Shown here one piece after another: positions 9,111 to 48,440 of a stretch of 64,000 bases of DNA. The stretch is taken from positions 21,691 through 85,690 of the forward strand of contig CAZHAH010000002.1 of the NCBI GenBank assembly GCA_964530095.1, given 5' to 3'. The notes beneath the pieces were generated by a model. The model saw nothing but the letters and a program-made list of their open reading frames with translations, was not told where the DNA came from and did not search any database. Origin of the DNA: an uncultured Desulfobacteraceae bacterium (GTDB lineage: Bacteria; Desulfobacterota; Desulfobacteria; Desulfobacterales; CAZHA01). Position 1 is the first letter of the stretch, and each line of letters starts with the position of its first letter. The position numbers and the translations under genes are program-made.

Positions 9111-9153
9111 TCACCACCCGCACCCGTGCAGCATGGCCATGCAATGATGAGGT

Positions 9154-9182
9154 AAGGGTAACGCCCATTGGGCGTTACCCTT
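9154..9182 (+). promoter_or_regulatory. Intercistronic stem-loop after the binding-protein gene (no U-tract)
   Basis: AAGGGTAACGCCCA-T-TGGGCGTTACCCTT, a 14-nt perfect palindrome arm pair. Confidence 0.6.
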
Positions 9183-9254
9183 CGGATCTCAAATTAAGCC
9201 GTAAGATTCTGAGTGGGGCACCTAACTGTTCACTTAGATGAGAGATGAATCAAG

Positions 9255-9923: not shown

Positions 9924-9924
9924 G

Positions 9925-10614: not shown

Positions 10615-10619
10615 TTCTC

Positions 10620-11432: not shown

Positions 11433-11484
11433 CAATGCGCATGCGGCAGGTTTAACAAGTAAAATTGAAATGAAGGTGTGACTT

Positions 11485-12273: not shown

Positions 12274-12311
12274 GCTAGTTGGAAATTGATTAGCTCGTAA
12301 AAAGTCGGAAA

Positions 12312-12404
12312 ACCGATTTCGAACCTCATCCCGCACGATTATCCGGTGGTCAGCAGCAACGGATCGCCATTGCAGGGGCGCTGGCCATGATGCCCAAAAT
12401 CTAA
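12312..12404 (+). pseudogene. Relic of an ABC ATPase gene (signature-motif segment only)
   Basis: Own translation: TDFEPHPARLSGGQQQRIAIAGALAMMPKI*. No Walker A or B on either side. Confidence 0.7.
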
Positions 12405-12417
12405 CCTAAGGATATCC

Positions 12418-14985: not shown

Positions 14986-15085
14986 TAAGTTCCCCCTCAT
15001 CGGTGAAAGGTTTAGACAATCAGCTTACTTTGAATTCAGACTTCGTCGAATAGTCGCTTGGAAAATAATAGAAAAAGCACATCGC

Positions 15086-18879: not shown

Positions 18880-20037
18880 TTATTTGAGTACCAATCTATC
18901 TAAAGGGGTATGTGTAATGACCTCCAGTCCATCTTCATTTAATATCGCAGTATTGGAAATAAATGGGTCTGCAGGATGCCCCAGGTTGATCCAGGATTCC
19001 AGGTGGAAAACCATGCCTGCCTTGAGTTCTCGATCACTTTCGGCACGCAGGCTTCTGACCTTGGTGCCCCCTACCCAGCTGGGAGGAAAACCGATTCCGG
19101 TGATATATCCGCAGTGATGGCGATGATAATCGATGCCTGCCTTATCCACAACCGCCTGCCAGGCGTTATAGGCATCGGCGGCGGTCATCCCTGGTTTTAC
19201 AGTGGAAATCAGGGTATCATTCGCTTCCAGATTGATTTTCATAAGATCTTCTGCCCCCTCAGGAGCCTGACCCATATAGACGACCCTGGTTTCCGGGGCA
19301 TGATAGCGGCGATAGCAGCCACTCACACAGATCGCCAGGGGATCGCCCTGCTTGAGATCATATGGGTTCCAACTGGCATGTTCCTGGTGCAGATTGGTCG
19401 GGGAGTGCACAAATGGGGCAAATCCAGGAATTTCACTTCCAGCCTTTATCATGGCTTTATAAAGTTCTGCGGCAACATCTTGAACTTTTATACCAACTCT
19501 TGCAATCTCGTGAGCTGCGTGCATGGCAGCATCGGATGCATGGGCAGCCTTCCTGGTGTATTCCAGTTCTTTGGGTGACTTGCAGTCCCTTAGGTCCTCG
19601 ATAATGCCGGAGGCATCCACGAAAGTGGCATTGCCAAGCCCCTCCACAATAGTCTCGGCATCATGCACCGTAAAAAAAGCATGATCTTTTTCCATGCCGA
19701 TCCGTTTTTTGTCCAGTTTGTGATCTTTAATTCGGGCCACGGTAAACTCAGCTGAATCTTCATCATCAGTGTGTCCATACCACAGAGCCAGATCTCCCAC
19801 CTGCTCGTTAATCACCACTTCTTCCATGGCCCTGGTGATGAGGATTAATTTGCCATCCTGTGGTACAATGAGCATCTGGTAAGCGAAGTGGCCCTGGTGA
19901 TCTAAACCGGTAAGGTAAAAGATGTTTTCCGGGCTGGAAACCAAAAAAATTTCCAGGTCTCTTTTTGCCATTTCATTACGCACAGCCCGCAGGCGTTTAT
20001 CATATTCCTCCTTACTAAAATAATCATGAACCCACAT
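18880..20037 (-). CDS. M24-fold hydrolase, creatinase/ectoine-hydrolase-like (paralogue 2)
   Basis: ENIFYLTGLDHQGHFAYQMLIV, SGCYRRYHAPETR, RHHCGYITG. Closest to 12418..13578. Start moved to ATG 20037 by alignment with that paralogue. Confidence 0.75.
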   Translation of the reverse strand: MWVHDYFSKEEYDKRLRAVRNEMAKRDLEIFLVSSPENIFYLTGLDHQGHFAYQMLIVPQDGKLILITRAMEEVVINEQVGDLALWYGHTDDEDSAEFTVARIKDHKLDKKRIGMEKDHAFFTVHDAETIVEGLGNATFVDASGIIEDLRDCKSPKELEYTRKAAHASDAAMHAAHEIARVGIKVQDVAAELYKAMIKAGSEIPGFAPFVHSPTNLHQEHASWNPYDLKQGDPLAICVSGCYRRYHAPETRVVYMGQAPEGAEDLMKINLEANDTLISTVKPGMTAADAYNAWQAVVDKAGIDYHRHHCGYITGIGFPPSWVGGTKVRSLRAESDRELKAGMVFHLESWINLGHPADPFISNTAILNEDGLEVITHTPLDRLVLK

Positions 20038-20175
20038 AGCTCCTATCCTTTTCAAACCGCCAAACTTAAGTGCCTGCATGGCACTTTATTTCGTGTATCC
20101 TTTTGTCCACATGGTACCTATTGATTCACCTGAGCAAAGTCGATAAAAGGTTCCTCGATGATCGTTGTTGAAATA

Positions 20176-21330
20176 TCACAGCATAATCAAATCCCTTGTA
20201 TATTTCGATAAAATTTCCACGCCGGTTTCTGTCACCAGGACATTGTCGATAATTCTAACGCCAAACTTTTCTTCATGAATATAAATGGGAGGCTCTATCG
20301 TTATGACCATACCAGCCTTAAGGATTTTCTCACTCCCGCCGAACAGCTCAAGCGTGTCGCACCATGAAGGTGGATAACCCGGAGCTAAGCTGTAGCCTGT
20401 CAAATGGGTGCGATACTTATCCATCCCAGCGTCTGCAATGATTCTTTTTGCTGCCTCGTGCGGGATAGCAGCAGGCACTCCTGGTCTTATCTCAGCTATC
20501 GCTGCATCGCATGCCTCGCGAACGATGTTATATATTTCCTGAACTCGAGGTCTGGGTTTACCGAGACACATTTGCCGTCCAACGGTACTGACATACCTTT
20601 TATATACGGAACCCCATTCGGTAGTTATGTCATCACCCCTTTTTATTTTTCGTTGTGTTGGCAAGGCGTGCGGGTAGCAGGTTCTTTTTCCGGTGCCGAT
20701 GTTCATTGGGCTTGGGCTAGAATCACTGCCCAGCTTAAGTAATGTATAGGTGATTTCAGCGCTAAGCTCGATTTCGGTCATACCCTCACGGACCACTTCG
20801 ATACACCTCTGCAACCCTGCATCCCCGATTTCAGCGGCCCTTTTTATATATTCCAACTCCTTTGGAGACTTGACATGCTTCAGTCTGGCTACAAAATCCG
20901 GATCCTCCAGAACCAAAGAATCGCCAAGGTAATCTTTGATGTCCAGGTAGTCATAAATACCCAGATAGTAGTAAGGCGCCTCCAAACCGATCCGAAGTTT
21001 TAAATAGTTCCCCGCCTGCATTACCTTATTAATAGCCTCAATCGGCTTTTCCGGCTCGCGACCACCCCAACCCACGACCTCATCAGCCAGACTTGTATCT
21101 ATATATTCTGCTACTTCTGCCAATCTGGTGATGATGACAAGGGGTTTTTCCTCCTGCGGAAAAAACAGACATTGGAATTCCTGATAGCTTTTTGCTCTGG
21201 AACCGAGAAGCCAATGGATGCTGATCGGCGAGGTAATCAGCATTAAATCGATCTGAGCCTCTGCCATCGCCGTTCTCAGTTTGACGTGTCTTTGCTGAAA
21301 TTCATTCATTGAAAAGTCTTCTTTAGACAT
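20176..21330 (-). CDS. M24-fold hydrolase (paralogue 3, most divergent)
   Basis: Creatinase_N-like N-terminal domain. WGSVYKRYVSTVGR and THLTGYSLA. GGGGAGAG RBS. Confidence 0.7.
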   Translation of the reverse strand: MSKEDFSMNEFQQRHVKLRTAMAEAQIDLMLITSPISIHWLLGSRAKSYQEFQCLFFPQEEKPLVIITRLAEVAEYIDTSLADEVVGWGGREPEKPIEAINKVMQAGNYLKLRIGLEAPYYYLGIYDYLDIKDYLGDSLVLEDPDFVARLKHVKSPKELEYIKRAAEIGDAGLQRCIEVVREGMTEIELSAEITYTLLKLGSDSSPSPMNIGTGKRTCYPHALPTQRKIKRGDDITTEWGSVYKRYVSTVGRQMCLGKPRPRVQEIYNIVREACDAAIAEIRPGVPAAIPHEAAKRIIADAGMDKYRTHLTGYSLAPGYPPSWCDTLELFGGSEKILKAGMVITIEPPIYIHEEKFGVRIIDNVLVTETGVEILSKYTRDLIML

Positions 21331-21367: not shown

Positions 21368-22555
21368 TTAGACTTTCATATTATTGAAAAATTTAAATGC
21401 TGTACGAATATAGATCTCAACACCGATATTAAGTGCATCCTCATCAATATTAAACTGTGGATGGTGATGGGGAAAGCAGGTCCCTTTGGCCTCGTTTCCC
21501 GTACCAACAAAAAGGAATGCGCTCGGTACCCGATCCGCGAACTCCGCAAAATCCTCACCAGCCATGGACACAAAGGAAACAATAGACCGAGGATCGCCCA
21601 GAACCTCTTGGACAACCGGGCGAACCAGCTCGATCATGTCTGGATCATTGGCCAAAGCCGGATGGCCGTAAATCAACGATAACTCATATTCGGCGCGGTG
21701 GGTCCGACAGATGCCGGCAATGATTCTTTCAAAACGCTCACTCAGTTTTTCTTTTCCATCTTCAGCTTCTTCATACAGAAATCGAATCGTTCCGGAGAGT
21801 TTCACTTTGTCCGGGATTATGTTCCAGGCGGTTCCCCCCTTGATTTCACCGAACACGATACTGGTTGGTGTGAGCACATCAAGTTCGCGCGTTTGAATGA
21901 TTTGAAGCGTCTGAACCACCTCAGCGGCAGTGATGATTGGGTCCACGGCGCTCTGGGGGGTCGCTGTATGTCCACCACGACCGATGATGGTTATCTCAAA
22001 ATAATACATTCCGGCCATAACGGGGCCGGCTTCAACCGCGATTTTGCCGGTTGCGATGGGACTCCAGAGATGAATGCCCAGGCAAGCGTCGACCGGCGGG
22101 TCTTCGCGCACACCGGCTTCAATCATGGCCATGGCGCCGCCGTTCTCTTCATTGGGTTGAAATACGAATTTGATATTTCCGCGCAGATTTTCACGGCTTT
22201 GGGAAAGGATTTTTGCCGCTCCAAGGAGCATGGCCATATGGCCGTCGTGGCCGCAGGCATGCATTTTGCCGTCAATCCGCGAACGGTAGGGGACATCACA
22301 TTCTTCCCGGATGGGCAGGGCGTCCATATCCGCGCGGAGCATAAAGGTGGGGCCTTTTACGGCGCCGCTCAAAAGACCCACCACGCCCGTTCCGCTGACG
22401 CCGGTTTTAACTTCCAATCCGCATTGCTGCATATATTCGGCAATCTTTTCGGCGGTTTTAAATTCTTCGTGACCGAGTTCCGGGTATTGATGGAAATAAC
22501 GGCGTAATTCCACGACTTCATCATTTAAGGCGAGAACTTCTGGTGAAATTTTCAT
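21368..22555 (-). CDS. M20D amidohydrolase (N-acyl-amino-acid deacylase / hippurate hydrolase type)
   Basis: LRRYFHQYPELGHEEFKT, RADMDALP, MHACGHDGHMAMLLGAA. Confidence 0.85.
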   Translation of the reverse strand: MKISPEVLALNDEVVELRRYFHQYPELGHEEFKTAEKIAEYMQQCGLEVKTGVSGTGVVGLLSGAVKGPTFMLRADMDALPIREECDVPYRSRIDGKMHACGHDGHMAMLLGAAKILSQSRENLRGNIKFVFQPNEENGGAMAMIEAGVREDPPVDACLGIHLWSPIATGKIAVEAGPVMAGMYYFEITIIGRGGHTATPQSAVDPIITAAEVVQTLQIIQTRELDVLTPTSIVFGEIKGGTAWNIIPDKVKLSGTIRFLYEEAEDGKEKLSERFERIIAGICRTHRAEYELSLIYGHPALANDPDMIELVRPVVQEVLGDPRSIVSFVSMAGEDFAEFADRVPSAFLFVGTGNEAKGTCFPHHHPQFNIDEDALNIGVEIYIRTAFKFFNNMKV

Positions 22556-22609: not shown

Positions 22610-23332
22610 TTAGGATTTCGGTTCAAGCCGGAACAGCTGACCGTATCCTTCATTCTTGGAATTGACGCCTGCTAGGCGCAGCAAGTCCCACACGGTGGCC
22701 TGGTTGGCGCTGACGACCGGTTTGCCAAGGTCTTGCTCCAATACCCGAAGAACTTCCACGGTACGAAAATTGGTACAGCTGATAAAGATGGCATCCGCCG
22801 CGCTGTTATCTGCCGCCTTTGCCAGCCGATACGCAGCGCCTGCGGGTTGATTGAATATCTCACGGTAAAGGCCCAGGCCTTGGAGAACGACGACCTCAAA
22901 CCCGCTGTCTTCCATGAAGGTTTTCAAACGTGCGTTGATTTCGTCTGGGTAAGGAGTGACGATGGAAATTTTTTTAGATCCAAGAGCCTTGAGCGCCCGG
23001 ACTGCGGCCGTCGTAGAGGTGGTGCAGGGAGCGCCGGCAGCGGTTTCCATACGGCGAATAATTTCCAAATCACTATCAACCCCGTGTACAAAACTTCCGG
23101 AAGTACATGCATAGGCAATGGCATCGAGACGGATGACGTTCAGATCGGCGGCAGCCTTGTCGATATCCTCACTCTGGGTTTGCGCCTCCAATACCGCCAG
23201 GGTTTGTTCTTCCTGAGGAACGCTTATGCGCGTAATGTGGACACTAACCCCGCGAGGGGCCAATTCCCAATATTCGTGATCCAATGCACCGTCAGCCGGG
23301 TAAATGATCCCTAATTTGGCTCTCCAAGACAT
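22610..23332 (-). CDS. Maleate cis-trans isomerase / arylmalonate decarboxylase / EutA-like protein with both catalytic-type Cys
   Basis: KLGIIYPADG, AYACTSGSF (Cys76 by my count), AIFISCTNF (Cys186). Confidence 0.75.
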   Translation of the reverse strand: MSWRAKLGIIYPADGALDHEYWELAPRGVSVHITRISVPQEEQTLAVLEAQTQSEDIDKAAADLNVIRLDAIAYACTSGSFVHGVDSDLEIIRRMETAAGAPCTTSTTAAVRALKALGSKKISIVTPYPDEINARLKTFMEDSGFEVVVLQGLGLYREIFNQPAGAAYRLAKAADNSAADAIFISCTNFRTVEVLRVLEQDLGKPVVSANQATVWDLLRLAGVNSKNEGYGQLFRLEPKS

Positions 23333-23370
23333 GTTTCCTCCACATATTCCGTTTACAGTGTCAATAAAAC

Positions 23371-25005
23371 TTACTGCGGTGAGTTAGGTACATCTAGTGC
23401 CCGGCGCAGAATGGATATCGGATGGGCCACCGGAAGAGCGGAAGCCCCGTGCATGCGGACCTGGCACGGTCCACATTCGCTCAAAGCAATATCGGGTTTG
23501 AGAGTGCTCAATGACTCGGACAGCTGCCGGCCGACATCGGTGCTGATCTTGTATTTCTCGGCTTTGAAGCCATAACTCCCTGACTGACCGCAGCAGTTGG
23601 CATCCAACACATCAACTTTGAACTCGGGGATCTTTTCAAGGATCTCAACAAGCGGCCGGCCGATTTTTTGCGTGCGCAAATGACACGGCGTATGATAGGC
23701 TGCATGTAAAGGAACGGGATTTAAGTCGAGCTGCAACTCCCCGGTCTCGATGAGGTGGCGCAGATATTCTCCGAGGTCATGTGTACGGGCAGCGATATCG
23801 GCGGCGTTTGCCATCCCCAGCACTTCTGAGTACTCATGTTTGAGCATCAAGCTGCAGCTGGTACAGCTGGCAATAATCTCATATCCCCGGTCGCACCAGG
23901 GTTGGAGCGCTGAGATATTCGCTTCAGCCAGTTTTCGTGCGCTGTCCATATCACCGCTGCTGACCAGCGGCAACCCGCAGCAACACTGTTGTGGAATCTC
24001 GACGTGAAATCCCAGATTTTCAAACACCGCAACCGCGTCTTTACCGGGATCGGTGTCATTGTAATGCGTATAACATCCGACAAAATAGATGATCTTGCGT
24101 TTGGCGGTGCCAGGTTCGGCCTTCGGCAAACGCTGTTTAATCCAGTGCTTAAATGGTCGGGCATACGGCACCATCTCTGCCTTGCGACTGATGCCTAATG
24201 CAGTTTCCATGCCGCTGCGTACAAGGGTGCTTGCCAAAAGGCGGTTGCTCAGGGACGGAAAAAGGCCGCCCATTTTTCCCATCAACTCGGCGCGCCCCAG
24301 CATCCAATCCCTTAAGCTGCGACCTTTCTCCCGAACATAAGCATCTTTCACTTGGGCGTTTATACGGTTCAAGGCAACGCCGGAGGGGCACGCCACGTGA
24401 CAATTCAGGCACAGACTGCAGAAATCGGTGTTTTCTTCAATGGGGGCCGCCTTGGTGCCGTCTCTGTCGATTCTAACGCCGGATGACATCACTTCGGTAA
24501 TGACGGCCGGGCTGGGGAAGCTGTCATCCATTTCAGCGGCCACCGGACACGCCGCGTTACATACCAGGCACCCGATGCAGCAGGACAGGTTGGCGTAGTC
24601 GATCTCGGACTCAGGCAAAGCGGCCGCCGGTTGCGGCCCACTTGCAGCGGTCTCACCGTATGAAAGCGTTTGTACAAATCCGGTTTGGTAACGCTCCCGG
24701 TCAACAATGAGATCTCTGATAACCGGGAAGTTTGGCAGCGGCCCGATGTGAAGATCATTTCCATCGACCATCGTTCGGCAGGCCAGAACCGGCTTGCCGT
24801 TCACTTCGACCGCACAGCTACCGCATTTGCCCGCTTCACAGGACGAGCGAAAGGCCAAACTGTCGTCCTGGGAATTCTGGATTTCTGCCAACACCTCCAG
24901 AACGGTCTGGCTGGGATAATGTTTCAGTTCATACGGTTGCACGTACGATGCGGGTGTTGCCTCGTTTTGATAACGATCAATCTCTACTTTAAACGTTTTA
25001 GCCAT
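23371..25005 (-). CDS. TfrB-like iron-sulfur subunit: SdhB-type 2Fe-2S + two 4Fe-4S motifs + two CCG domains
   Basis: CEAGKCGSCAVEVNGKPVLAC; CIGCLVCNAACP; CSLCLNCHVACP; QQCCCGLP and ANCCGQSGSYG. Confidence 0.8.
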   Translation of the reverse strand: MAKTFKVEIDRYQNEATPASYVQPYELKHYPSQTVLEVLAEIQNSQDDSLAFRSSCEAGKCGSCAVEVNGKPVLACRTMVDGNDLHIGPLPNFPVIRDLIVDRERYQTGFVQTLSYGETAASGPQPAAALPESEIDYANLSCCIGCLVCNAACPVAAEMDDSFPSPAVITEVMSSGVRIDRDGTKAAPIEENTDFCSLCLNCHVACPSGVALNRINAQVKDAYVREKGRSLRDWMLGRAELMGKMGGLFPSLSNRLLASTLVRSGMETALGISRKAEMVPYARPFKHWIKQRLPKAEPGTAKRKIIYFVGCYTHYNDTDPGKDAVAVFENLGFHVEIPQQCCCGLPLVSSGDMDSARKLAEANISALQPWCDRGYEIIASCTSCSLMLKHEYSEVLGMANAADIAARTHDLGEYLRHLIETGELQLDLNPVPLHAAYHTPCHLRTQKIGRPLVEILEKIPEFKVDVLDANCCGQSGSYGFKAEKYKISTDVGRQLSESLSTLKPDIALSECGPCQVRMHGASALPVAHPISILRRALDVPNSPQ

Positions 25006-25037
25006 TGGTTCACCTTTACAGTGTCCTTGCTTACGGT

Positions 25038-26720
25038 TTATTCTGGATGAATCTCGGTGATATCAACAGGTCTCACCCCCGCACGCATGCCCTGAGCCTC
25101 CTCGTCCATCTCGATGACGGTGCAGTACGGGGGCGTTGTGGCATCGAGCTGGGGAAAGTTCTCCACATAGTGAGCACCACGGCTTTCCTTTCTCATTTGT
25201 GCGGCAGTGACGATCATTTGGGCCACTTTTACCATTTTTTCAACATCCAGGTAAGCCAGGAGACTATAGTTGTGGTGCAATCCCGACCCGTTGATGCCGA
25301 TCCCGGGGAGTAATTCTTGCTCAATTTCTTCCAGGGCTTGCTTGGCTGTTTCCAGACCTTTGACTGTCCTTGAAACGTACACATGCGCTTGCATCACCCG
25401 CCGTAACCGGTCCTTTGCCTGGGCAGCGGTCAGTTCGGAAACGCCTCGATTGAGAAGGCCCTGTATGCGCGAGGTCTCCTCTGCCACCTGATTTTTGTCC
25501 GGCACCCGGCGATCAGTCTGGTCTGCATACCGGGAGGCGCTGGTGCCTGCGCGTGACCCGAATACGAGAATCTCTGACAAACTGTTTCCGCTGAGACGGT
25601 TGCCGCCCTGCACGCCGCCTGAGACTTCACCTGCCGCAAATAGGCCCGGGGCTGTGGATCGTGCGTCGCGATCAATAGCTACGCCGCCCATGAAAAAGTG
25701 CGCCGAGGGTGCAATCTCTACGCGCTGATGACGGTAATCAAAGCCGCGTTCAGCGCAGATTTCCCATTCGTACTTGAAGCTGCGCAATGTTTCCTCGGGA
25801 ACTTCGGTGGCATCCAGAAAAACCCCGCCATGTTGGGTGCCGCGACCTTCGGTAATTTCGGTATAGATGCCGCGGGCCAGCCGATCTCGGGTGGTATGTT
25901 CCAGCAACTCCGGTTCGTATTTGGCCATGAAGCGCTCATTTCCAGCGTTGTAGAGTTTGGCATACTCTTGAACACCCAGAATAAAGCCATGCAGGGATCT
26001 AGGGTATACCAGCCCACAGGGATAGAATTGAACCTGTTCCATATTGATCAGACTGGCACCAGCCGCCAGCGCCAGTGCCAGACCGTCCCCGGTAACTTTG
26101 ATTGGGTTGCTGGTAACAGGATACAGCTGGCCGACACCACCGGTGGCCAGCACAACGGCCAAGGCATTGACCTGAACGATTTCGCCGTTGCCTAAATCCA
26201 CTCCCATGGCACCGATTACGCTGCCGCCATGGGTAAGCAGGCGCGTTGTGGTTATATCCGGGTGGTGATCGACCCCCTGGCGAAGCAGTTGGGCGCGGAG
26301 CACTTTCGTCATCTGGAGCCCCACGCGGTCACTGATGGCCATCACGCGGGGATAACTGTGCCCACCGGCACGGTCCAAAACATAGCGCCCATCCGATTCT
26401 TTGTCGAAGCGAAGTCCCCACTTTTCCATTTCCATGACGCGATCCTGGGCTTCGGCCGTCAACACGCGCACCAGCGGCTGATCGCTCAAGTAAGATCCGC
26501 CCACAATCGTGTCGCGAAAGTGAACATCAACCGAGTCTTCGGGTACGCTCCATGGGCCTACGGCCGATACGCCGGCGCCGCTCACTGTGCCGCCGCTGCG
26601 CCCCACCAGCCCTTTGTCCCAGATGGTAACTCGCCGACCGGCTTCAGAGGCACGGATAGCGGCATACAGACCGGCACCCCCTGTGCCGATCACCAATACA
26701 TCAGTCTCAAAAACCCTCAA
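25038..26720 (-). CDS. FAD flavoprotein of the SdhA/FrdA/TfrA/NadB family
   Basis: TTG start with AGGAGG 7 nt upstream. VLVIGTGGAGLYAAIRASEAG, HFFMGGVAID, LFAAGEVSGGVQGGNRLSGNSL. No membrane-anchor gene nearby. Confidence 0.8.
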   Translation of the reverse strand: MRVFETDVLVIGTGGAGLYAAIRASEAGRRVTIWDKGLVGRSGGTVSGAGVSAVGPWSVPEDSVDVHFRDTIVGGSYLSDQPLVRVLTAEAQDRVMEMEKWGLRFDKESDGRYVLDRAGGHSYPRVMAISDRVGLQMTKVLRAQLLRQGVDHHPDITTTRLLTHGGSVIGAMGVDLGNGEIVQVNALAVVLATGGVGQLYPVTSNPIKVTGDGLALALAAGASLINMEQVQFYPCGLVYPRSLHGFILGVQEYAKLYNAGNERFMAKYEPELLEHTTRDRLARGIYTEITEGRGTQHGGVFLDATEVPEETLRSFKYEWEICAERGFDYRHQRVEIAPSAHFFMGGVAIDRDARSTAPGLFAAGEVSGGVQGGNRLSGNSLSEILVFGSRAGTSASRYADQTDRRVPDKNQVAEETSRIQGLLNRGVSELTAAQAKDRLRRVMQAHVYVSRTVKGLETAKQALEEIEQELLPGIGINGSGLHHNYSLLAYLDVEKMVKVAQMIVTAAQMRKESRGAHYVENFPQLDATTPPYCTVIEMDEEAQGMRAGVRPVDITEIHPE

Positions 26721-26762
26721 GATTATTCCTCCTCGTTTCTATGGAGCGATGTCTGTTTGTCT

Positions 26763-27506
26763 CTATGGCAAAGACGTCTGAAACAAGCGGCCTGCATTCG
26801 GCAGGGATTCCTTTACACCGGCCAATTGCAGGGCGTGCCACATGCTGGCCATATTGGCGCTGAACACCGGCTTGCCGAGATCCCTTTCCAGGGCTTCAGC
26901 GATGGGGCTGAGCACGATACCGGTATCGCTCACAAAAACCGCTTCGGCTTCATCGGTATCGGCTTTGCGTACCATGTCACTGATTGTAGACAAATCGATT
27001 CTCCCGATATCCCAGTCCAGCGTAAGGCCTAATCCCACATGGTTGACGACGCTAACCCCAAAATGCTCTACATATTGGATCAGCTTTTCATTCAACCGCG
27101 GTTCATAAGGTGTGGCCAGGGCCACCTTCTTTACGGCCAAAGCCTGCATTGCCGCTATCAACGATGTGGAGGTGGTCGTCGCCGGGCAGCGACCGCCTTC
27201 ACTCAACATCGTGCGCAAATTCTTGTCCCACTCCGGGCCGCGGCTGAAGCTGCCGGACGTACACATCCAGACAATCGCATGCGGCCGAATCGTGGCCAAA
27301 TCGGCGGCATGCTGGTTGAATTCCTTCCCTTCGGCCACTTCCTGCATGCTTTCCAAGGTCACGCTGCCCTCATCCGGCATGGAGGTGCGGGTGATGTGTA
27401 CGGATACCCCGGGCGGACAAAGGGTGTAATATTCCATATCCGCCAATCCGGAGGCAGGATAAACGATTCCGATGCGCGCCCGCCAGCCGTAACTCGCTTT
27501 GTGCAT
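26763..27506 (-). CDS. Second maleate-isomerase/EutA-like protein, second Cys position replaced (SDTG)
   Basis: RIGIVYPASG and VWMCTSGSF retained. VFVSDTGIV sits where the paralogue has FISCTNF. Ends in TAG. Confidence 0.75.
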   Translation of the reverse strand: MHKASYGWRARIGIVYPASGLADMEYYTLCPPGVSVHITRTSMPDEGSVTLESMQEVAEGKEFNQHAADLATIRPHAIVWMCTSGSFSRGPEWDKNLRTMLSEGGRCPATTTSTSLIAAMQALAVKKVALATPYEPRLNEKLIQYVEHFGVSVVNHVGLGLTLDWDIGRIDLSTISDMVRKADTDEAEAVFVSDTGIVLSPIAEALERDLGKPVFSANMASMWHALQLAGVKESLPNAGRLFQTSLP

Positions 27507-27530: not shown

Positions 27531-28601
27531 TTATTTCTCTTTAGCCCAAATGATATCTTTGATTACCGCATCTAAGACTTCCTTTGCCCCTTCACCGCCC
27601 ATCTTCAGATACTTTTGACGAAGCGGTTTCGCTTTTTCCCTGAAAGCGGCAATCTCTTCATCCGTCAATTCGATATACTTCATTGTCGGTTTGGCTTTCA
27701 TGATCATTTGCTTGCGTTTTTCGTTCAACCTAGGTTCAAAATCGAAAATATACTCATTGGCGCCCTCGACAGCATTGTCTATCAGAACTCGAATATTTTC
27801 CGGAAGGTCCTTAATGAACTCATGGTTGGCGGCAAAAGTTCCGATAAACGGCAACTGATTGGCTTTGATCATATAATCCTGGACTTCGTAAAACTTCATC
27901 TCCTGGATGGCGAAAAAGGGCTGCGTTTCAGCATCAATCCTACCCAGCTCAAGGTTATAATAAATCTGGCCGTATGGAACAGTCATAACGTATGCGCCGT
28001 ACAGGCGATAAGCCGTAATGAGAAACGGAGAGGACATGACCCTAAATGTAATTCCTTCGAAATCCGCGGGTTTCCGCAGCGGTTTATTGGCCGTCCATAT
28101 CTGCCAGCCTTCCTCAATAATTGACAGCAGTTCCAGCTTGTTTTTTCGGTAGTACTTTCCAAGAACCTTATATGTATTCGGACCTTTGCGCAGGATTTTT
28201 TCGAGCAGCTTGAAATCCGTTGGAAACAGGTAGTGAATGGAAAAAACCTGAACCTCGGGGATATAGGAACCCAGATGTCCGGGGGACTGAAAGGCGAACT
28301 GAAGATCTCCTTTCTGTAAAAGTTTCGTGATCTCTCCAGACGTGCCGAGCTCTCCATAAAAGTGAATGTTGCAGCGAATCTTTCCATTAGATTTATTTTC
28401 TAAGATCTCAACGAACTTATTAGCATACTCATGTTGCATGCTGCCTTCGATTTCTTCCAGGGCCACTTGCCACAAATATTTTACCGCGCCGGCTCGTTCG
28501 GCGTACCCGAAGATCAGTATACACCCCATAAGTACTGTCATGAGTCCTGTTGCCGGTCTCAAGGCCGGCCGCCTCCAACTTTTCATATGGATACGGATCA
28601 C
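27531..28601 (-). CDS. TRAP-type (DctP family) solute-binding protein, orphan (no own membrane subunits)
   Basis: Signal peptide. Colinear paralogue of 32165..33214 (EEIEGS...YGELGTSGEI...FSIHYLFPT). GTG 28601 overlaps the restored stop of the upstream gene (GTGA). Confidence 0.75.
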   Translation of the reverse strand: MIRIHMKSWRRPALRPATGLMTVLMGCILIFGYAERAGAVKYLWQVALEEIEGSMQHEYANKFVEILENKSNGKIRCNIHFYGELGTSGEITKLLQKGDLQFAFQSPGHLGSYIPEVQVFSIHYLFPTDFKLLEKILRKGPNTYKVLGKYYRKNKLELLSIIEEGWQIWTANKPLRKPADFEGITFRVMSSPFLITAYRLYGAYVMTVPYGQIYYNLELGRIDAETQPFFAIQEMKFYEVQDYMIKANQLPFIGTFAANHEFIKDLPENIRVLIDNAVEGANEYIFDFEPRLNEKRKQMIMKAKPTMKYIELTDEEIAAFREKAKPLRQKYLKMGGEGAKEVLDAVIKDIIWAKEK

Positions 28602-29592
28602 TGTGTCCCCCCCTTAACAAGTCTGCTTTGTATGATGCGAATATATTCTTCCGAGTCGATGCTGCTACCTGTCAGCAGGAGCTCAACCTTTTTTCCTTTC
28701 ACATCTATCTTCCGACTCAACAGCGCACCGACACCGACCACCCCGGCTCCCTCTACGATCAACCGGTGCTGATCGAAGGTATAAAAAAACCGTCTTTTAT
28801 CTCTTCTTCGGATACCAACAAGTGTTCATCCGTAAATTTCTCCACCAACGGCAACGTGTACCGGTTATCAAAACCGATACCCCCTAAAAGCGAATCGGCA
28901 ATGGAATCTTTTTCTTCCACCTGAACGGGTCTGCCGGCTTTAAGGCTTTCCGCCATGGCCGGAGATCGCTCCAGAGAAAGCCCGACAATATGAATGCCCG
29001 GATTGATCGATTTGGCCGCCATGGCAATCCCTGCCAAGAGACCGCCGCCGGACAGCTGAATCATCAGGATATCGGTATCGGGAAGCTTTGACAGTATTTC
29101 GAGCCCAATGGTCCCCTGGCCAGCGATGATCATCGGATCATCAAACGGGACAACAGGGACAAGTCCCCGGGACGCTGCCAGTTGTTGATAGTTCTTCTCC
29201 GCTTCATCCTGGGAATGGCCTTTTACCGAGACTTCCGCACCAATTTTTCTGATGATATCGGCCCGGTAGGCAGCGACATGTTCGGATAGACAAACAAGCG
29301 CTTTAATTCCGGTTTGTCCGGCCACATAGGCCACTGCCTTGCCGTGGTTGCCGGTTGAAAAAGTGATGACGCCTTTTTTCTTCTCTTCTTCGCTGAGGCT
29401 TAGGATCTTATTTGCCGCGCCTCTCACTTTAAAGGCACCAGTGTTCTGCAGACATTCCAGCTTCAAGTGAACCGAATGCGCACCGGTTCTTTCCGCCAAA
29501 TCACTGGATGGCAACAGCGGCGTTTGAAGGATCACCGGTTCAATTCGAACATGGGCTCGATACACATCATGCAGCGTCGGTAGGTGTGTCAT
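28598..29592 (-). pseudogene. EutB-like threonine/serine dehydratase (PLP) interrupted by a -1 frameshift in an A7 run (28783-28789)
   Basis: The track ORF (28759..29592) ends ...EEEIKDGFFIPSISTG*. The next frame continues FFYTFDQHRLIVEGAGVVGVGALLSRKIDVKGKKVELLLTGSSIDSEEY... to TGA at 28600-28598, matching the C-terminus kept in the paralogue (KYTLEQEKIVIEGAASVGIAAL). One extra A restores 331 codons. Confidence 0.75.
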
Positions 29593-29604: not shown

Positions 29605-30042
29605 CTATCGCCGTGTAACGAAAACCGAGATGGGAGATCGACGCAACACTTTCTCCGCCGTACTGCCCATGACAATCTTTTTCAAATCCGACCGACCATG
29701 GGAGCCGGCAAATACCAGATCATAGTTGCCGTTTTCAATCTCATAAAGGCAGCTGATATAAGGCGTTCCCTTTCGAATTTTTCGCTTATATCCGATCTTG
29801 GCCAATTCGGGAATCGCCGCTTCCAGGTTATCAAACTGCTCTTCGGCATGTTTTTCAAGTTTTCGCTCTAAAGTGTGATATTCGGAATCGGATAACACAT
29901 AGGTCAGATTGTGTGTGTCACGAACAACATTCAGGATGGTCAGACGTGAATTATATTTTTTCGCAAAATCGACTGCTGCTTTAACCGCTTCATCGGAATC
30001 TTTGGAAAAGTCGGTCAATACAAGCACATTTTGATATTCCAT
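29605..30042 (-). CDS. Universal stress protein (UspA family), in a TeaD-like position
   Basis: 145 aa. ILVLTDFS...LTILNVV...LVFAGSHGRSDLKKIVMGSTAEKVLRRSPISVFV. GAGGAG RBS. Ends in TAG. Confidence 0.85.
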   Translation of the reverse strand: MEYQNVLVLTDFSKDSDEAVKAAVDFAKKYNSRLTILNVVRDTHNLTYVLSDSEYHTLERKLEKHAEEQFDNLEAAIPELAKIGYKRKIRKGTPYISCLYEIENGNYDLVFAGSHGRSDLKKIVMGSTAEKVLRRSPISVFVTRR

Positions 30043-30056
30043 AGGTCGCTCCTCGT

Positions 30057-30153
30057 GATTCTGGATGCTCGTTCTGGATGAGATAAGGATTTTTTTTAAT
30101 CCAAGCTAAAGTCGGTAACTTCGAGCAGCATCGAGAATCCAGCATCCAGCATC
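30057..30153. repeat. Inverted cluster of CTGGATG / CAGCATC heptads around a GGATT-T6-AATCC hairpin
   Basis: CTGGATG at 30061 and 30074. The complement CATCCAG/AATCCAG is at 30143 and 30136. CAGCATC at 30126, 30140, 30147. Hairpin at 30087-30102. Confidence 0.6.
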
Positions 30154-30220
30154 TCTAAGCTACAAGCTATACTAGGTATCCTGCCGTTATGAAATTGGCT
30201 GGTTTGAGTCCTTGGCTCAG

Positions 30221-31510
30221 CTAGCCACCCATTGCCATGCTCGGTAAAAACAGGGCGATTTGAGGAAAGGTAATCAGGATGATCGTCGCCAGAATCAGAA
30301 TCAGCAGAAACGGCAGCGAGTGACCGATCACCTCGAGATACGGTCGTCGGAATATGAGCTGGGCGGTGAAAATATCGCAACCAAAAGGCGGTGTCGCCGA
30401 ACCAACCGCCGCTTGCAAAGTCACCAGCGTTCCCAGTAGAATGGGATTCACCCCCGCACCCACCACATAGGGCTGAAAAACCGGACTGAGAATGAATATG
30501 GCCACGATGGGGTCCACAAACATGCAGGCTACAAAGTAAACGACCACAATGATCGAAATCACCCACAGCATCGACGGATCGGGGCCGAACAACGGCGGCA
30601 GAAGCTGTTGAGGGATCTGCAAAAAACCGATTAAAAATGAAAATGCCTGGCCGGCCCCAACCAGAATGAAGACAACCCCGGTAATCACACCGGTCTGCAA
30701 AAAAGCATCGACAATTTTCTGGAACGTGATGGCCTTATAAACGATGGTCTCCAAAATCAATGCATATAGCACGGCAGCGGCGGCGGCCTCGGTGGGACTG
30801 AAAATCCCGGCATAAATACCACCAACGATGATTACTGGAAACCCCATGACCGGAAGCCCGTCCTTGACCGCGGACACCCGCTCGGCCCAGCTAGCCTTGG
30901 GCAAGGTTGGGACTTTTTTCACTTTGGAATAGATATAACAATAAATCGAAAACATCAGAAGGATCATCAGACCGGGAAAAACACCGGCCAGGAAGAGCAT
31001 CCCGATGGAGGTGCTGGTGGCCACCCCGTAAACGATAAAGCCGATGCTGGGAGGGATGAGAAAGGCGATATCGCTAGCGTTGATAATTAATCCCAGCGTA
31101 AAAGAGCTTTTATATCCTGCTTCCAGCAGCATGGGCCGCATGGTGCCGCCGATGGCGGCGACGGTGGCTTGGGTTGAGCCGGAAACGGCGCCGAAAAGCG
31201 TGCAACTCGCGTTGGTAGTAATGGGCAATCCGCCCGGCAGATGGCCCACAAAGACTTTCAGCATTCGTATTAACCGGCCGGCGGACTCACCGGATGTGAT
31301 GATACTGGCCGAGAGAATAAACATCGGCACACAGACCAATGCCGACGGCGTCACCCCGGTGATGATCTGCTGCACCATGGTAATGATCATTTTAGGTGCG
31401 AAATCCGGCATGTAGATGACTAGGTAAAGGATTAAAGAACCTAAAAGAGTTACCATAAAGGGGAACCCGAACAGTAACATCGTTGCCAGACTGATCCCAA
31501 AAAGTGTCAT
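30221..31510 (-). CDS. TRAP transporter large permease (DctM family)
   Basis: 429 aa polytopic protein. Start overlaps the stop of the small subunit (ATGA). Ends in TAG. Confidence 0.9.
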   Translation of the reverse strand: MTLFGISLATMLLFGFPFMVTLLGSLILYLVIYMPDFAPKMIITMVQQIITGVTPSALVCVPMFILSASIITSGESAGRLIRMLKVFVGHLPGGLPITTNASCTLFGAVSGSTQATVAAIGGTMRPMLLEAGYKSSFTLGLIINASDIAFLIPPSIGFIVYGVATSTSIGMLFLAGVFPGLMILLMFSIYCYIYSKVKKVPTLPKASWAERVSAVKDGLPVMGFPVIIVGGIYAGIFSPTEAAAAAVLYALILETIVYKAITFQKIVDAFLQTGVITGVVFILVGAGQAFSFLIGFLQIPQQLLPPLFGPDPSMLWVISIIVVVYFVACMFVDPIVAIFILSPVFQPYVVGAGVNPILLGTLVTLQAAVGSATPPFGCDIFTAQLIFRRPYLEVIGHSLPFLLILILATIILITFPQIALFLPSMAMGG

Positions 31511-32091
31511 ATCTGCACCCCCCCTATCTCTTCATCTTCGTATTCGCTCTGTTGATCCGGAGACTGCCAGGGGTCCTTTTCAGTCAAATTCTTGATGATC
31601 GTTCGGATATACTGGATACCTGCCAGGCCGAATCCGATAGGAATAATCACGTAAAATGTCCATTTCGGCATGCGCAAGGCCGGTGTCATGTGCCCTTTAC
31701 TCATGGCATTGGCCAGATACTCGTAGGAGGCCCACGTCATGATCCCCATAACGATCGCACTGACAATTGAGATGATAATAATAAACGTCTTCTCCATTTT
31801 TGGCGGCATGGCGTCTAAAAACGCACCCATGCGGATATGTCGTGCCTTCCTGACGCCGTAGCTGACACCGGTAAAGGTAGTCAGCAACACCAGAAACACG
31901 GACACTTCCTCGGCGAAATAGATGCTTTGAAAAAAAATTCGGGCAAACACATTGGCGATTAAAAGAATGCCGAGGGCGGCAACGCAAAACACCAAAATGG
32001 ATACTTCCACACCGTTGACGATCAAACCGGTGTAGTGGTTGATTCTCTGGAAGACGGACGACTCACCTGGATCCCTACTTTTATCATTCAT
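31507..32091 (-). CDS. TRAP transporter small permease (DctQ family)
   Basis: 194 aa with 4 predicted helices. Positioned between DctP-like and DctM-like genes. Confidence 0.85.
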   Translation of the reverse strand: MNDKSRDPGESSVFQRINHYTGLIVNGVEVSILVFCVAALGILLIANVFARIFFQSIYFAEEVSVFLVLLTTFTGVSYGVRKARHIRMGAFLDAMPPKMEKTFIIIISIVSAIVMGIMTWASYEYLANAMSKGHMTPALRMPKWTFYVIIPIGFGLAGIQYIRTIIKNLTEKDPWQSPDQQSEYEDEEIGGVQI

Positions 32092-32123
32092 TTCGCGGTC
32101 TCCATTGCGGATGAATCTGAGAC

Positions 32124-32154
32124 GGTACTGCGGCAGTGGGACCGCCGCAGTACC
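32124..32154 (-). promoter_or_regulatory. Intercistronic stem-loop after the TRAP binding-protein gene (11-bp perfect stem, no U-tract)
   Basis: GGTACTGCGGC-agtgggacc-GCCGCAGTACC. Confidence 0.6.
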
Positions 32155-32164
32155 ATTGGAGCGG

Positions 32165-33214
32165 TTATTTGATGCCTAATGCGCTTTTTGCATTTTCGAT
32201 GTCTTTTAAAAGCGCATCGAGAATTGCCTGGGATCCTTCGCCCCCGATTTTGGTATATTGTGGATAAACGGTCTCCGCCTTGGCCTTGAAGGTAGCAATG
32301 GTGGCATCATCCAGTACGTTGAATTTCAGCGATGGTTTGGCCTTTTTCATTTTTTCTCCATCACTGACGTTTCTTTCGGTAATCCATTTACCGGCCGGGA
32401 TGATGGCATCGATCCAGAACCTGCGCATCTCCTGCTGAACTTCCTTGGGAAGGTTGTCGAAAAACTTCTTGTTCACCGTAGGAATGCCGATAAACGGCTC
32501 ACTTTTCAACTGGGTCAAGTAGTTCTGAACCTCATAGAACTTCATGCTGAAGATGGCAAACAGCGGGTTGACCTGGGCATCGATCAGGCCCATTTGAAGA
32601 CCGCTGTAGACTTCGCCGTAGCTCATCGGTGTAGGCGCGGCCCCATAAGCCTTATAGTCTTCCACCAGCAGCTTGGAAGACATCAGGCGAAGTTTGAGAC
32701 CCTTGACGTCATCCAGTGATTTAATTTCTTTTTTGGAGCTCATCCACTGCCACCCTTCAAACATAATCGAAAGCGGTACGAGACCGTTTTTCCTGAAGGC
32801 TTTTTCCAACAGAGGCATAAACTCACCCTTTCTCACCATCCAGTCCAGAATTTCCGGAATTTTTTTGGTGGGAAATAGGTAGTTTAAAGCCAGCACCTGG
32901 GCCTGGGGAACAAACGAACTAATCCAGGCGTAATCGGAAAACACATACTGCACCACACCCATTTGGGCCAGTTCGTTGATGTCGCCAGTGGCCCCCAGAG
33001 TGCCATAGGGGTAGACATTGATGTCAATTTTGCCGCCGGACCATTTTTTCATATGATCGGAAAAATTTCTGGCCCAGACGGTCATGAAATCACCTTCAAT
33101 CTCTTCTGAAGCCAGTTTGGCCTTAACTGCCGGTCCGGTGTAACTGGCGGCCATGGCGGTGCCAAAGAGGCCGAGAATAAAAAGGGCGGTTAATAGCATG
33201 ATGGTTTTTTTCAT
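32165..33214 (-). CDS. TRAP-type (DctP family) solute-binding protein, TeaA/UehA-like position
   Basis: AAGGAG RBS and a signal peptide. EEIEGDFMTVWARNF...YGTLGATGDINE...LNYLFPTK. Confidence 0.8.
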   Translation of the reverse strand: MKKTIMLLTALFILGLFGTAMAASYTGPAVKAKLASEEIEGDFMTVWARNFSDHMKKWSGGKIDINVYPYGTLGATGDINELAQMGVVQYVFSDYAWISSFVPQAQVLALNYLFPTKKIPEILDWMVRKGEFMPLLEKAFRKNGLVPLSIMFEGWQWMSSKKEIKSLDDVKGLKLRLMSSKLLVEDYKAYGAAPTPMSYGEVYSGLQMGLIDAQVNPLFAIFSMKFYEVQNYLTQLKSEPFIGIPTVNKKFFDNLPKEVQQEMRRFWIDAIIPAGKWITERNVSDGEKMKKAKPSLKFNVLDDATIATFKAKAETVYPQYTKIGGEGSQAILDALLKDIENAKSALGIK

Positions 33215-33305: not shown

Positions 33306-34058
33306 TTATATAAAACCGGAAAACCGCTGCCGGACCACTGCCGAAAATACATAATTGATCATGGTGACATAATCGAACACCGGTAGCTTCACGGCTTCCT
33401 GAACGGTCGCAGCGTATGGCGGCAACAGACTGCATTCCAGCAGAATGGCCCCAACAGACGGATCTGTATCCACAAGATTTCGGGCCGCTGCAACCACTTC
33501 CTTTTCCACAGCTTCGGTGTCTAAAATTCCGGTTTCCTCGATGGCGAAACTGAAAAAATGCTTTCGATGCTCCAGTCCTTCAAGAACCACACGGTCCGTA
33601 TCGTGAACGCCCATTTGAAGAAGCAGCTTTCTGTCCAGGCTTCGGGAATCCGCGGTAATCACTCCCACCTTTGCCTTATCTCCCATGATGTTGCTGATAA
33701 AGGGAATCTGCAGCAGGCTGGAAAGAAATACCGGAATATCCAGCTTGCCGGCCAGCTTAGACTGGTGAATCGCCATGAATCCGCAATCGCCTGTAATGGC
33801 TCTAACGCCCTGACCCGCGAGCTCCTCGGCGGCTGTCTTCAATGCGTCGAACACCGAGGGATCTTTGCCGACTGCACGCGCGACCGTAAACCCCTCCACT
33901 TTTCGAAAACGCACCGGGAAAGGGTATGTGGTCGCATTGGCGACATCCCCCGGAATGAAAGGCACGGAGGTATCTATCAGCAGAATTCCGACGGCCTCTC
34001 CGCTGCTGACCTGGCCTTTGCGTGCTTTGTAGATGATGCTTTTCCCCTCCAAACTCAC
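33306..34058 (-). CDS. Asp/Glu racemase superfamily protein (two-Cys type), paralogue of 722..1507
   Basis: ITGDCGFMAIHQ and ILLECSLLPPY. Start set to GTG 34058, which overlaps the upstream TGA (GTGA). The track ORF start 34160 would overlap the upstream gene by 106 nt. Confidence 0.75.
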   Translation of the reverse strand: MSLEGKSIIYKARKGQVSSGEAVGILLIDTSVPFIPGDVANATTYPFPVRFRKVEGFTVARAVGKDPSVFDALKTAAEELAGQGVRAITGDCGFMAIHQSKLAGKLDIPVFLSSLLQIPFISNIMGDKAKVGVITADSRSLDRKLLLQMGVHDTDRVVLEGLEHRKHFFSFAIEETGILDTEAVEKEVVAAARNLVDTDPSVGAILLECSLLPPYAATVQEAVKLPVFDYVTMINYVFSAVVRQRFSGFI

Positions 34059-36435: not shown

Positions 36436-36446
36436 GTGCAATCCTT

Positions 36447-48427: not shown

Positions 48428-48440
48428 GTACGATCCTTTC

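Follow-up and report, generated by a model that had tools for sequence, protein, structure and literature searches.

A conserved four-gene block

An uncultured marine Desulfobacteraceae bacterium of the sulfate-reducer type encodes, within the 64,000-nucleotide stretch of contig CAZHAH010000002.1 analysed here (the window), a block of four genes in the order Amd2-TfrA-TfrB-Amd1, in which a TfrA-like flavoprotein and a TfrB-like iron–sulfur (FeS) protein lie between two members of the AMDase/maleate-isomerase family (Table 1). A question raised by this arrangement is whether the pair acts on fumarate, as names given to its homologues imply, or on some other solute. The first-pass annotation of this DNA had placed isomerase-like genes closely on both sides of the pair, and this is what we find: the four open reading frames are separated by gaps of 42, 32 and 38 nucleotides, and both flanking proteins match PF17645. 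It had also described the pair as a soluble or peripheral TfrAB-like architecture separate from sdhCAB, which is borne out by the Pfam domains, by the motifs and by a hydrophobicity scan that found no transmembrane-like helix in any 19-residue segment of the four proteins. No membrane-anchor gene lies beside the block, the neighbours being a solute-binding protein and an M20 hydrolase, and a canonical type-B (b558-type) sdhCAB set, scoring above the family cut-offs, is located separately at 45753-49082.

The block recurs in five or more further genomes of uncultured organisms or metagenome contigs, far more than chance would allow. Loci L004 (Desulfotignum), L006, L008 (Chloroflexi), L010 and L104 share its gene order, and the possibility, raised at the outset, that the block would prove not to be conserved in relatives did not materialize. 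The short contig L011 shows the first three genes, and L090 has the same gene set in another order (two AMDase genes, M20, M24, TfrA, TfrB). Across uncultured Desulfobacterales and Chloroflexi/Anaerolineae, the block proteins are 50-80% identical; the closest relative, L010, is labelled Desulfobacterales. Identical genes also occur in independent metagenome assemblies of the window organism, the sources being seawater and marine samples. The family of fused FeS subunits is small, and all of its members are from uncultured organisms: approximately 45 clusters are at least 46% identical to the window protein (Desulfotignum, Desulfobacterales, Desulfuromusa, Anaerolineae and Chloroflexi). The fused type accounts for 5 of the best 80 loci when 185,579 species genomes are scanned, and for 1 of the best 80 metagenome loci, where true GlpC genes dominate the matches listed; both counts are lower bounds for the collections. 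Scans for promoters and terminators found none in the gaps of the block, and their counts, no higher than in shuffled sequence, are uninformative on operon status. A fusion of Amd2 to TfrA through read-through of the Amd2 TAG codon as pyrrolysine was ruled out by a second in-frame TAG seven codons on.

A flavoprotein with a predicted one-carboxylate pocket

The flavoprotein gene starts with TTG, preceded by GGAGG, and its product is about 30% identical to each of Escherichia coli NadB, FrdA and SdhA. TfrA is its best-scoring NCBIfam model, and the cut-offs of all three candidate models are missed (TfrA, 473 versus 718 bits; SdhA/FrdA TIGR01812, 385 versus 567 bits; NadB TIGR00551, 324 versus 453 bits, the exact value being 452.75). 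In a small neighbour-joining tree, the flavoprotein and its homologues form a clade of their own that adjoins NadB; kinship to genuine methanogen TfrA is judged from hidden Markov model scores only. Membership of the NadB clade with NadA and NadC encoded elsewhere, which had been named as a refuting outcome, did not come about: the NadB score falls well short, and nadA and nadC were not found among the window open reading frames that were scanned.

To describe the substrate pocket we use E. coli FrdA numbering and counts over the 114 full-length family members retrieved, aligned to E. coli FrdA, SdhA and NadB and to PDB sequences; the T244/E245/R248 loop, where the automatic alignment is unreliable, was read from a NadB-anchored alignment and a motif count. 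In the SdhA/FrdA family, His355 and Arg390 grip the proximal carboxylate of the substrate, Arg287 is the proton shuttle, and His232 and Thr244 hold the distal carboxylate. All 114 members keep Arg287, His355 and Arg390. The His232 position is occupied by Tyr (79 of 114) or Phe (35 of 114), Thr234 is lost throughout (Cys, Ser, Ala, Leu or another residue) and the TExxRGEG hinge motif is present in 0 of 114, with the clade from ectoine-type clusters reading G-[IV]-Q-E-Y instead. The NadB motifs QFHPT and TEALRGEG are both altered in the window protein. Judged from these residues, the flavoprotein keeps the chemistry beside one carboxylate and the dicarboxylate pocket is gone, which makes fumarate, succinate, maleate and aspartate unlikely substrates; the protein is thus predicted to be neither a fumarate reductase nor a succinate dehydrogenase nor NadB. 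The suggestion that the block isomerizes and reduces a C4-dicarboxylate is not supported by this alignment, as both residues for the distal carboxylate (His232 and the Thr244 of the TExxRGEG loop) are missing from 114 of 114 proteins, and a pocket canonical for fumarate, another refuting outcome named in the first-pass annotation, was not seen. Speculatively, the aromatic and Glu substitutions at the old distal-carboxylate site would suit a delocalized amidinium cation. His44, which binds flavin adenine dinucleotide (FAD) covalently, is found in 0 of 114 members (Gly in 112, an alignment gap in the other 2), and the FAD is therefore predicted to be non-covalent.

The FeS-CCG protein carries the CxxCxxCxxxCP motifs CIGCLVCNAACP at residue 143 and CSLCLNCHVACP at residue 196, CCG motifs at residues 342 and 471, and a fourth Cys at the position of the three-Cys 3Fe-4S motif of E. 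coli SdhB/FrdB. It passes the GlpC model NF008369 (376 bits, cut-off 278) over residues 138-538, which accounts for the name ‘GlpC’ that homologues bear in databases, and is 32% identical to E. coli GlpC; in every fused locus, its gene pairs with an SdhA-like gene and not with glpA/glpB. From this make-up, it is predicted to be an electron wire to or from a quinone or a thiol/disulfide partner. In E. coli GlpC and Sulfolobus SdhE, which are quinone-facing, peripherally attached subunits, a double CCG likewise follows two ferredoxin-type motifs with no transmembrane helix (PMC2754724 for SdhE); unlike them, the window protein has an SdhB-type N terminus and an SdhA-like partner in place of GlpA/GlpB.

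The closest described architecture is that of Methanothermobacter TfrAB (NF004900/NF004898), which also consists of two subunits without an anchor, one with FAD_binding_2 and Succ_DH_flav_C domains and the other a fusion of a 2Fe-2S domain, two four-Cys motifs and two CCG domains. The window pair differs from it in scoring below both equivalog cut-offs, in the replacement of the His, Thr and Glu that serve fumarate, in a CCG half that is nearer to GlpC, in its bacterial host and in its context of osmolyte catabolism. It is very improbable that the pair is a soluble fumarate reductase or thiol:fumarate reductase that removes fumarate from ectoine-derived aspartate, with the flanking genes as maleate isomerases. 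Such a function would agree with the calling of TfrA and TfrB as best-scoring NCBIfam models, with the domain architecture shared with TfrB, with the name ‘fumarate reductase (CoM/CoB) subunit A’ that Joint Genome Institute pipelines give to homologues, and with the fact that ectoine catabolism ends in aspartate. Against this, both scores are far from the equivalog cut-offs (473/718 for TfrA and 243/385 bits for TfrB), the fumarate-binding and fumarate-activating His232, Thr234 and T244/E245/R248 loop are lost in the whole family, a complete canonical sdhCAB is present in the same window, and neither aspartase nor fumarase is adjacent to the block. We know of no coenzyme B outside methanogens and their archaeal relatives, which also counts against this function. 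A thiol electron donor had been proposed earlier: as coenzyme M/B this is implausible in these bacteria, and an unspecified dithiol is kept as an option below. The homologues thus seem to define a sizeable misannotated clade, labelled ‘fumarate reductase (CoM/CoB)’, ‘L-aspartate oxidase’ or ‘GlpC’, with a pocket predicted to exclude fumarate, and metabolic reconstructions that count its genes as fumarate reductase or GlpC would be wrong.

Two kinds of flanking AMDase-family protein

Both flanking proteins score far above the PF17645 cut-off of 25.9 bits, and neither reaches the EutA equivalog (TIGR02990, cut-off 318 bits; Amd1 147, Amd2 102) or the AMDase equivalog (cut-off 225 bits; 126 and 102 bits, respectively). 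Read at the positions of AMDase Gly74/Cys188, the Gly/Cys pair is absent from both. Amd1 has a Cys/Cys pair, as do the genuine EutA proteins of Sinorhizobium meliloti and Leisingera, with which it shares 31-33% identity. Amd2 has a Cys/Asp pair (WMCTSGS ... VSDTGIV), in common with the upstream Amd2 orthologues of L004, L006, L008, L010 and L011 and with 95 of the 120 homologue clusters listed for it. The consistency of the split indicates, at the level of predicted catalytic residues, that Amd1 and Amd2 are not equivalent. The sole AMDase gene of L009 encodes a Cys/Asp protein, and the two of L090 encode one Gly/Cys and one Cys/Cys protein.

Confinement of the Cys/Asp paralogue to TfrAB-bearing loci was considered and is ruled out by L184 (6207-12916) and L185 (342-4877). 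One of these Cys/Asp genes lies beside M20, enolase-superfamily, DUF3830 and ABC transporter genes; the other adjoins creatininase, RidA and class-III aminotransferase genes.

The eutABC slot of an ectoine-type cluster

In canonical operons (S. meliloti pSymB and a Leisingera plasmid), the gene order is (ehu or ueh)-usp-eutA-eutB-eutC-doeA-doeB. The window reads uehABC-usp-eutB(broken)-dctP2-Amd2-TfrA-TfrB-Amd1-M20-M24, with uehABC-usp in the same order as in the Leisingera eut operon, and from its position after usp the block fills the slot of eutABC. The first eutB copy is a probable pseudogene: its C-terminal approximately 50 residues run on in a different frame, the end of which overlaps the start of dctP2 at GTGA, and the same 277-amino-acid truncation is called in the independent assemblies L001 and L002. 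The middle of the second copy is deleted. In tblastn searches with EutB and EutC queries from three sources, the window and 11 of the 12 TfrA-bearing loci lacked a EutC/OCD homologue, L009 being the exception, and the only EutB matches in any of them were the two decayed copies of the window. That the pair might stand in for an absent EutC-type redox step, mentioned in the first-pass annotation as a second option, is favoured by both the slot and the missing EutC.

The block resembles EutABC (S. meliloti, Ruegeria and Leisingera) in its place after uehABC-usp and before a hydrolase/deacetylase, in its EutA-like Cys/Cys protein (PMC5924519, PMC13188858) and in its presumed task, the conversion of hydroxyectoine, or ring-opened equivalents, to ectoine. 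It differs in that the pyridoxal-phosphate (PLP) enzyme EutB is absent or decayed and EutC, the OCD-family enzyme that depends on NAD(P)H, is missing, with an FeS-flavoprotein pair and a Cys/Asp paralogue instead, and in that an M20 (DoeB2-like) protein replaces the deacetylase DoeB.

The surrounding genes identify the setting, in the window and in relatives, as an ectoine-type catabolic cluster, as far as homology can tell (Table 1). The main TRAP binding protein (32165-33214) has its best PDB matches in UehA (3fxb) and TeaA (2vpn); that of the orphan DctP2 is 4pfi, a TRAP binding protein (238 bits), followed by the same two structures in the order TeaA, UehA. The DoeA-like hydrolase scores 405 bits to Halomonas elongata DoeA (6twk) and shares 50% identity with S. 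meliloti DoeA. Three components of the ABC system (EhuA, EhuC and EhuD) exceed the equivalog thresholds, and its binding protein finds its best match in EhuB. The operon is more compact in L104 and L010, where it runs IclR, PanB-like, 316-amino-acid protein, aminotransferase, DoeA, Amd2, TfrA, TfrB, Amd1, M20; in the window, the PRK07475 gene, uehABC, usp, eutB and dctP2 are inserted between DoeA and Amd2. In L010 and L104, the 316-amino-acid protein is conserved at 82-83%; its AlphaFold2 model, computed without an alignment, was unusable (predicted local distance difference test score of 37). According to a 2026 survey, Thermodesulfobacteriota have putative ectoine clusters of 9-13 genes; these contain two eutD and some unexplained genes and lack eutE and ssd, and the survey did not discuss the enzyme of the block (PMC13188858). 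A full-text literature search found no paper that joins hydroxyectoine, sulfate reducers and fumarate reductase.

Table 1 Genes of the block and of the surrounding cluster, by position in the window
Feature	Position	Strand	Evidence and remarks
Amd2 (AMDase/maleate-isomerase-family)	26763..27506	minus	PF17645 114 bits, E = 1e-32
TfrA-like flavoprotein, 560 amino acids	25038..26720	minus	PF00890 (FAD_binding_2, 246 bits) and PF02910 (Succ_DH_flav_C, 89 bits)
TfrB-like SdhB-GlpC fusion (FeS-CCG protein), 544 amino acids	23371..25005	minus	PF13085 (SdhB-type 2Fe-2S), Fer4_8 (dicluster region), two PF02754 (CCG domains)
Amd1 (AMDase/EutA-like)	22610..23332	minus	PF17645 130 bits, E = 1e-37
IclR regulator	38306..39085	minus	Operon head, conserved
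PanB-like hydroxymethyltransferase	37439..38296	minus	Operon head
316-amino-acid protein	36447..37397	minus	Operon head; no Pfam or NCBIfam match
Class I/II aminotransferase	35263..36450	minus	Operon head
DoeA/EutD-like ectoine hydrolase	34055..35230	minus	TIGR02993 508 bits
PRK07475 racemase-like gene, Cys/Cys	33306..34160	minus	PRK07475 292 bits; after DoeA
usp and UehABC-like TRAP	29605..33214	minus	NCBIfam; DctM 30221-31510, DctQ 31507-32091, DctP 32165-33214
eutB (hydroxyectoine dehydratase-like), frameshifted	28598..29592	minus	T7 run 28783-28789; EutB model 352 bits, residues 6-269 only
DctP2, orphan TRAP solute-binding protein	27531..28601	minus	PF03480; 24-nucleotide gap, directly upstream of Amd2
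DoeB2-like M20 amidohydrolase	21368..22555	minus	DoeB2 model 271 bits, amidohydrolase subfamily 361 bits
Two DoeA_2-like M24 hydrolases	20176..21330, 18880..20079	minus	DoeA_2 models 154 and 239 bits
Second eutB remnant, 188 amino acids	15086..15652	minus	EutB model positions 4-74 and 207-322
Ehu-type ABC transporter	8247..13578 region	plus	EhuB-like 8247-9110, then EhuC, EhuD, EhuA

The Ehu region (8247-13578) is transcribed convergently with the long minus-strand operon. Downstream of the Ehu genes, on the plus strand, are a partial SBP_bac_3 gene (11485-12273) and a further DoeA_2-like M24 hydrolase (12418-13578).

A candidate route for hydroxyectoine dehydroxylation

Few bacterial osmolytes are as abundant as ectoine and hydroxyectoine. 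To our knowledge, hydroxyectoine dehydroxylation has yet to be demonstrated biochemically in any organism, aerobes included, and the use of ectoines by anaerobes is almost unstudied. In the scheme put forward for EutABC, which is itself untested, EutA inverts a stereocentre, EutB makes 2-methyl-1,6-dihydropyrimidine-4-carboxylate and EutC reduces this to ectoine (PMC5924519); a later proposal, in the form in which PMC13188858 summarizes it, has the same steps take place on ring-opened hydroxy-N-acetyl-diaminobutyrate (hydroxy-ADABA) or hydroxy-diaminobutyrate (hydroxy-DABA). The presence of the block where eutB and eutC normally sit suggests that it probably serves to dehydroxylate hydroxyectoine anaerobically, by a route not described before. 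We tentatively favour reductive dehydroxylation as the task of the block, with 5-hydroxyectoine or ring-opened hydroxy-ADABA as the substrate, the chemistry being deduced from gene content and residues. Within this reading, and with the same reserve, the module would take the place of two enzymes of the aerobic pathway, the PLP dehydratase EutB and the NAD(P)H imine/ene reductase EutC.

In the proposed route, hydroxyectoine would first be taken up with the help of the TRAP (Ueh-like) and ABC (Ehu-like) systems and of the additional binding protein. Amd1, the Cys/Cys, EutA-like protein, would epimerize the alpha-carbon C4 and so bring H-4 and OH-5 into an anti arrangement. The Cys of Amd2 would then take the alpha-proton while its Asp protonates the leaving beta-hydroxyl, a cofactor-independent anti-elimination of water that would yield 2-methyl-1,6-dihydropyrimidine-4-carboxylate, an alpha,beta-unsaturated carboxylate. 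The flavoprotein would clamp this single carboxylate by His355/Arg390 and reduce the C=C bond (or the tautomeric C=N bond) to give ectoine, the hydride being supplied by non-covalent FAD and the proton by Arg287; electrons would reach the FAD via the 2Fe-2S, two 4Fe-4S and CCG clusters of the TfrB-like subunit, with menaquinol or some dithiol as the donor. Ectoine would finally be hydrolysed by the DoeA-like M24 protein and deacetylated by the DoeB2-like M20 protein.

A partial precedent is the catabolism of trans-3-hydroxy-L-proline, in which cofactor-free dehydration of a beta-hydroxy cyclic imino acid is followed by reduction of the cyclic ketimine/enamine by an enzyme of the OCD family (PMC4113996), the family to which EutC also belongs. 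The proposed route is alike in both steps. It differs in the reductase, for which the proline pathway draws on NAD(P)H-dependent OCD or MLD2 enzymes whereas the window candidate is an SdhA/SdhB-type FeS flavoenzyme, and in the substrate, a pyrrolidine there and a likely tetrahydropyrimidine here. By our own reading of the Cahn–Ingold–Prelog descriptors, (4S,5S)-5-hydroxyectoine has the relative configuration of (2S,3S) trans-3-hydroxy-L-proline.

An SdhA/SdhB-type FeS flavoenzyme recruited to reduce dehydro-ectoine, a heterocycle and not a dicarboxylate, and a Cys/Asp member of the Asp/Glu-racemase superfamily serving as dehydratase could provide marine anaerobes with a PLP- and NAD(P)H-independent dehydroxylation of hydroxyectoine fed by respiratory-chain or thiol electrons, a possibility that we put forward with some hesitation. 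The block offers a concrete candidate enzyme set for this reaction in sulfate reducers, Desulfuromusa and Chloroflexi of marine and brine habitats; dehydration would possibly be a new reaction type for one-thiol members of the AMDase/maleate-isomerase family, and if menaquinol is the donor, hydroxyectoine would serve as a respiratory electron sink.

The same chemistry can be written backwards. EctD, the enzyme of hydroxyectoine synthesis, needs O2, and an oxygen-independent replacement could have TfrAB dehydrogenate ectoine and Amd2 hydrate the product, which is the microscopic reverse of the favoured route; the aspartokinase gene that lies beside TfrAB in five loci would also suit synthesis. 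We regard this as scarcely credible, the least probable of the alternatives: the clusters hold uptake systems, ring hydrolases and deacetylases and are headed by catabolic regulators of the IclR type, ectABC is absent from them, and non-covalent FAD disfavours the oxidation of a saturated C-C bond.

The aspartokinase genes are found at L005 9691-10992, L007 11788-13089, L014 12966-14300, L008 980-3721 and L011 10-1215, and in L008 are joined by genes for aspartate-semialdehyde dehydrogenase and a class-III aminotransferase. Run in reverse, this set could convert aspartate semialdehyde to aspartate with a gain of ATP during anaerobic ectoine breakdown.

Variant clusters and an oxidative alternative

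In clusters of the Desulfuromusa type (L005, L007 and L014), both AMDase genes are replaced by a single gene, directly upstream of TfrAB, for a protein of the proline-racemase superfamily. The best NCBIfam and PDB matches of this protein are trans-3-hydroxy-L-proline dehydratases (PDB 4k7g_B), and it has a Ser/Thr pair as in 4K7G chain B, the pair described for t3HypD by Zhao et al. 2014 (PMC4113996). These clusters also encode a DoeA-like protein (460 bits), a DoeB2-like M20 protein and a TRAP system, the last being 66-87% identical to that of the window, and they probably handle the same solute. Here a direct syn-elimination by the t3HypD-like protein would account for the need for only one gene.

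Partners differ elsewhere in the family. The more distant L092 is from an aerobe, Neobacillus jeddahensis, and has a 40%-identical TfrA-like protein, a small 2Fe-2S protein, a PRK07475 Cys/Cys gene (12002-12751) and an amino-acid ABC transporter. The neighbours of the pair in L009 are DHDPS-, RidA- and OCD-family genes typical of D-hydroxyproline catabolism.

These variants bear on an oxidative alternative, in which TfrAB would work anaerobically as a quinone-linked dehydrogenase and, as NadB does, oxidize a C-N bond, here in a cyclic imino or amino acid of D configuration. Candidate substrates would be D-ectoine, a D-hydroxyproline-type compound or a diaminobutyrate derivative, and the racemase-like proteins would supply the stereoisomer, in the manner of DadX/DadA or of hydroxyproline epimerase and D-hydroxyproline dehydrogenase. 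It would accord with the flavoprotein always being accompanied by a racemase-superfamily gene of the cofactor-independent kind, in L092 too, where identity has dropped to 40%, with the D-hydroxyproline-type neighbours in L009 and with an aerobic Roseovarius plasmid that pairs M24 and Cys/Cys AMDase-family genes with an amine dehydrogenase of the sarcosine-oxidase type; the flavoprotein clade adjoins NadB in the small tree and, as in NadB, its FAD would be non-covalent. Against it, the partners conserved with TfrAB are one-thiol proteins (Cys/Asp or Gly/Cys) or of the Ser/Thr dehydratase type, for which two-base racemization is impossible, and a racemase acting with a D-amino-acid dehydrogenase was downgraded for this reason. 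In addition, D-ectoine is not known in nature, no oxidation is needed before ring opening in the canonical ectoine route, and the block occupies the eutBC slot, where the literature has a reduction. We therefore consider the oxidative alternative unlikely, although less so than a role in fumarate reduction or in hydroxyectoine synthesis.

Several observations weigh against reductive dehydroxylation as the function of the block. Cys/Asp proteins 56-58% identical to Amd2 occur without TfrAB in L184 and L185, so that the activity of Amd2 is not tied to the flavoprotein, and the more distant family members L091 and L092 stand in other contexts. L009 has an OCD/EutC-like gene in addition to TfrAB. 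Only distant DoeA_2-like M24 genes, and no M20 gene nearby, are present in L004 and L006, and these two loci and the window share MttB-type methyltransferases, the role of which the proposed route leaves unexplained. Menaquinol may be too weak a reductant for the enamine/imine couple, and non-covalent FAD fits an oxidative, NadB-like role equally well.

Other features of the window

The gene for a trimethylamine methyltransferase, MttB (15655-17127, minus strand), has one in-frame TAG at 16144-16146, and its halves match positions 2-313 and 333-469 of the model. This is the signature of a pyrrolysine codon, and the organism probably decodes UAG as pyrrolysine. An MttB-family gene of the non-pyrrolysine type (17266-18747) and a creatinase/DoeA_2-like M24 gene (18880-20079), both on the minus strand, form a conserved adjacent pair that is also found in L004 (3872-6492, where the two genes overlap) and L006 (984-3628). 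A gene related to MtaA/URO-D lies nearby at 13765-15000. Together with this MtaA-like gene, the pair may be a module for the anaerobic demethylation and hydrolysis of some N-methylated solute.

A cluster on the Roseovarius pelagicus plasmid NZ_CP106737.1 (L098, 2684-15056) combines Ehu-type ABC, M24, Cys/Cys AMDase-family, heterotetrameric sarcosine-oxidase-like and Rieske genes. It may be an oxygen-dependent counterpart of the theme of M24, AMDase-family and redox enzymes.

What looks like the remnant of a defence system or mobile element lies just upstream of the Ehu genes and comprises a DNA-methylase/HTH protein (5612-7060) and an AbiEii-type nucleotidyltransferase toxin (7226-7900). A stretch of lower GC content at the end of the window encodes, at 61490-62509 on the minus strand, an actin-like protein of the ParM/Alp type.

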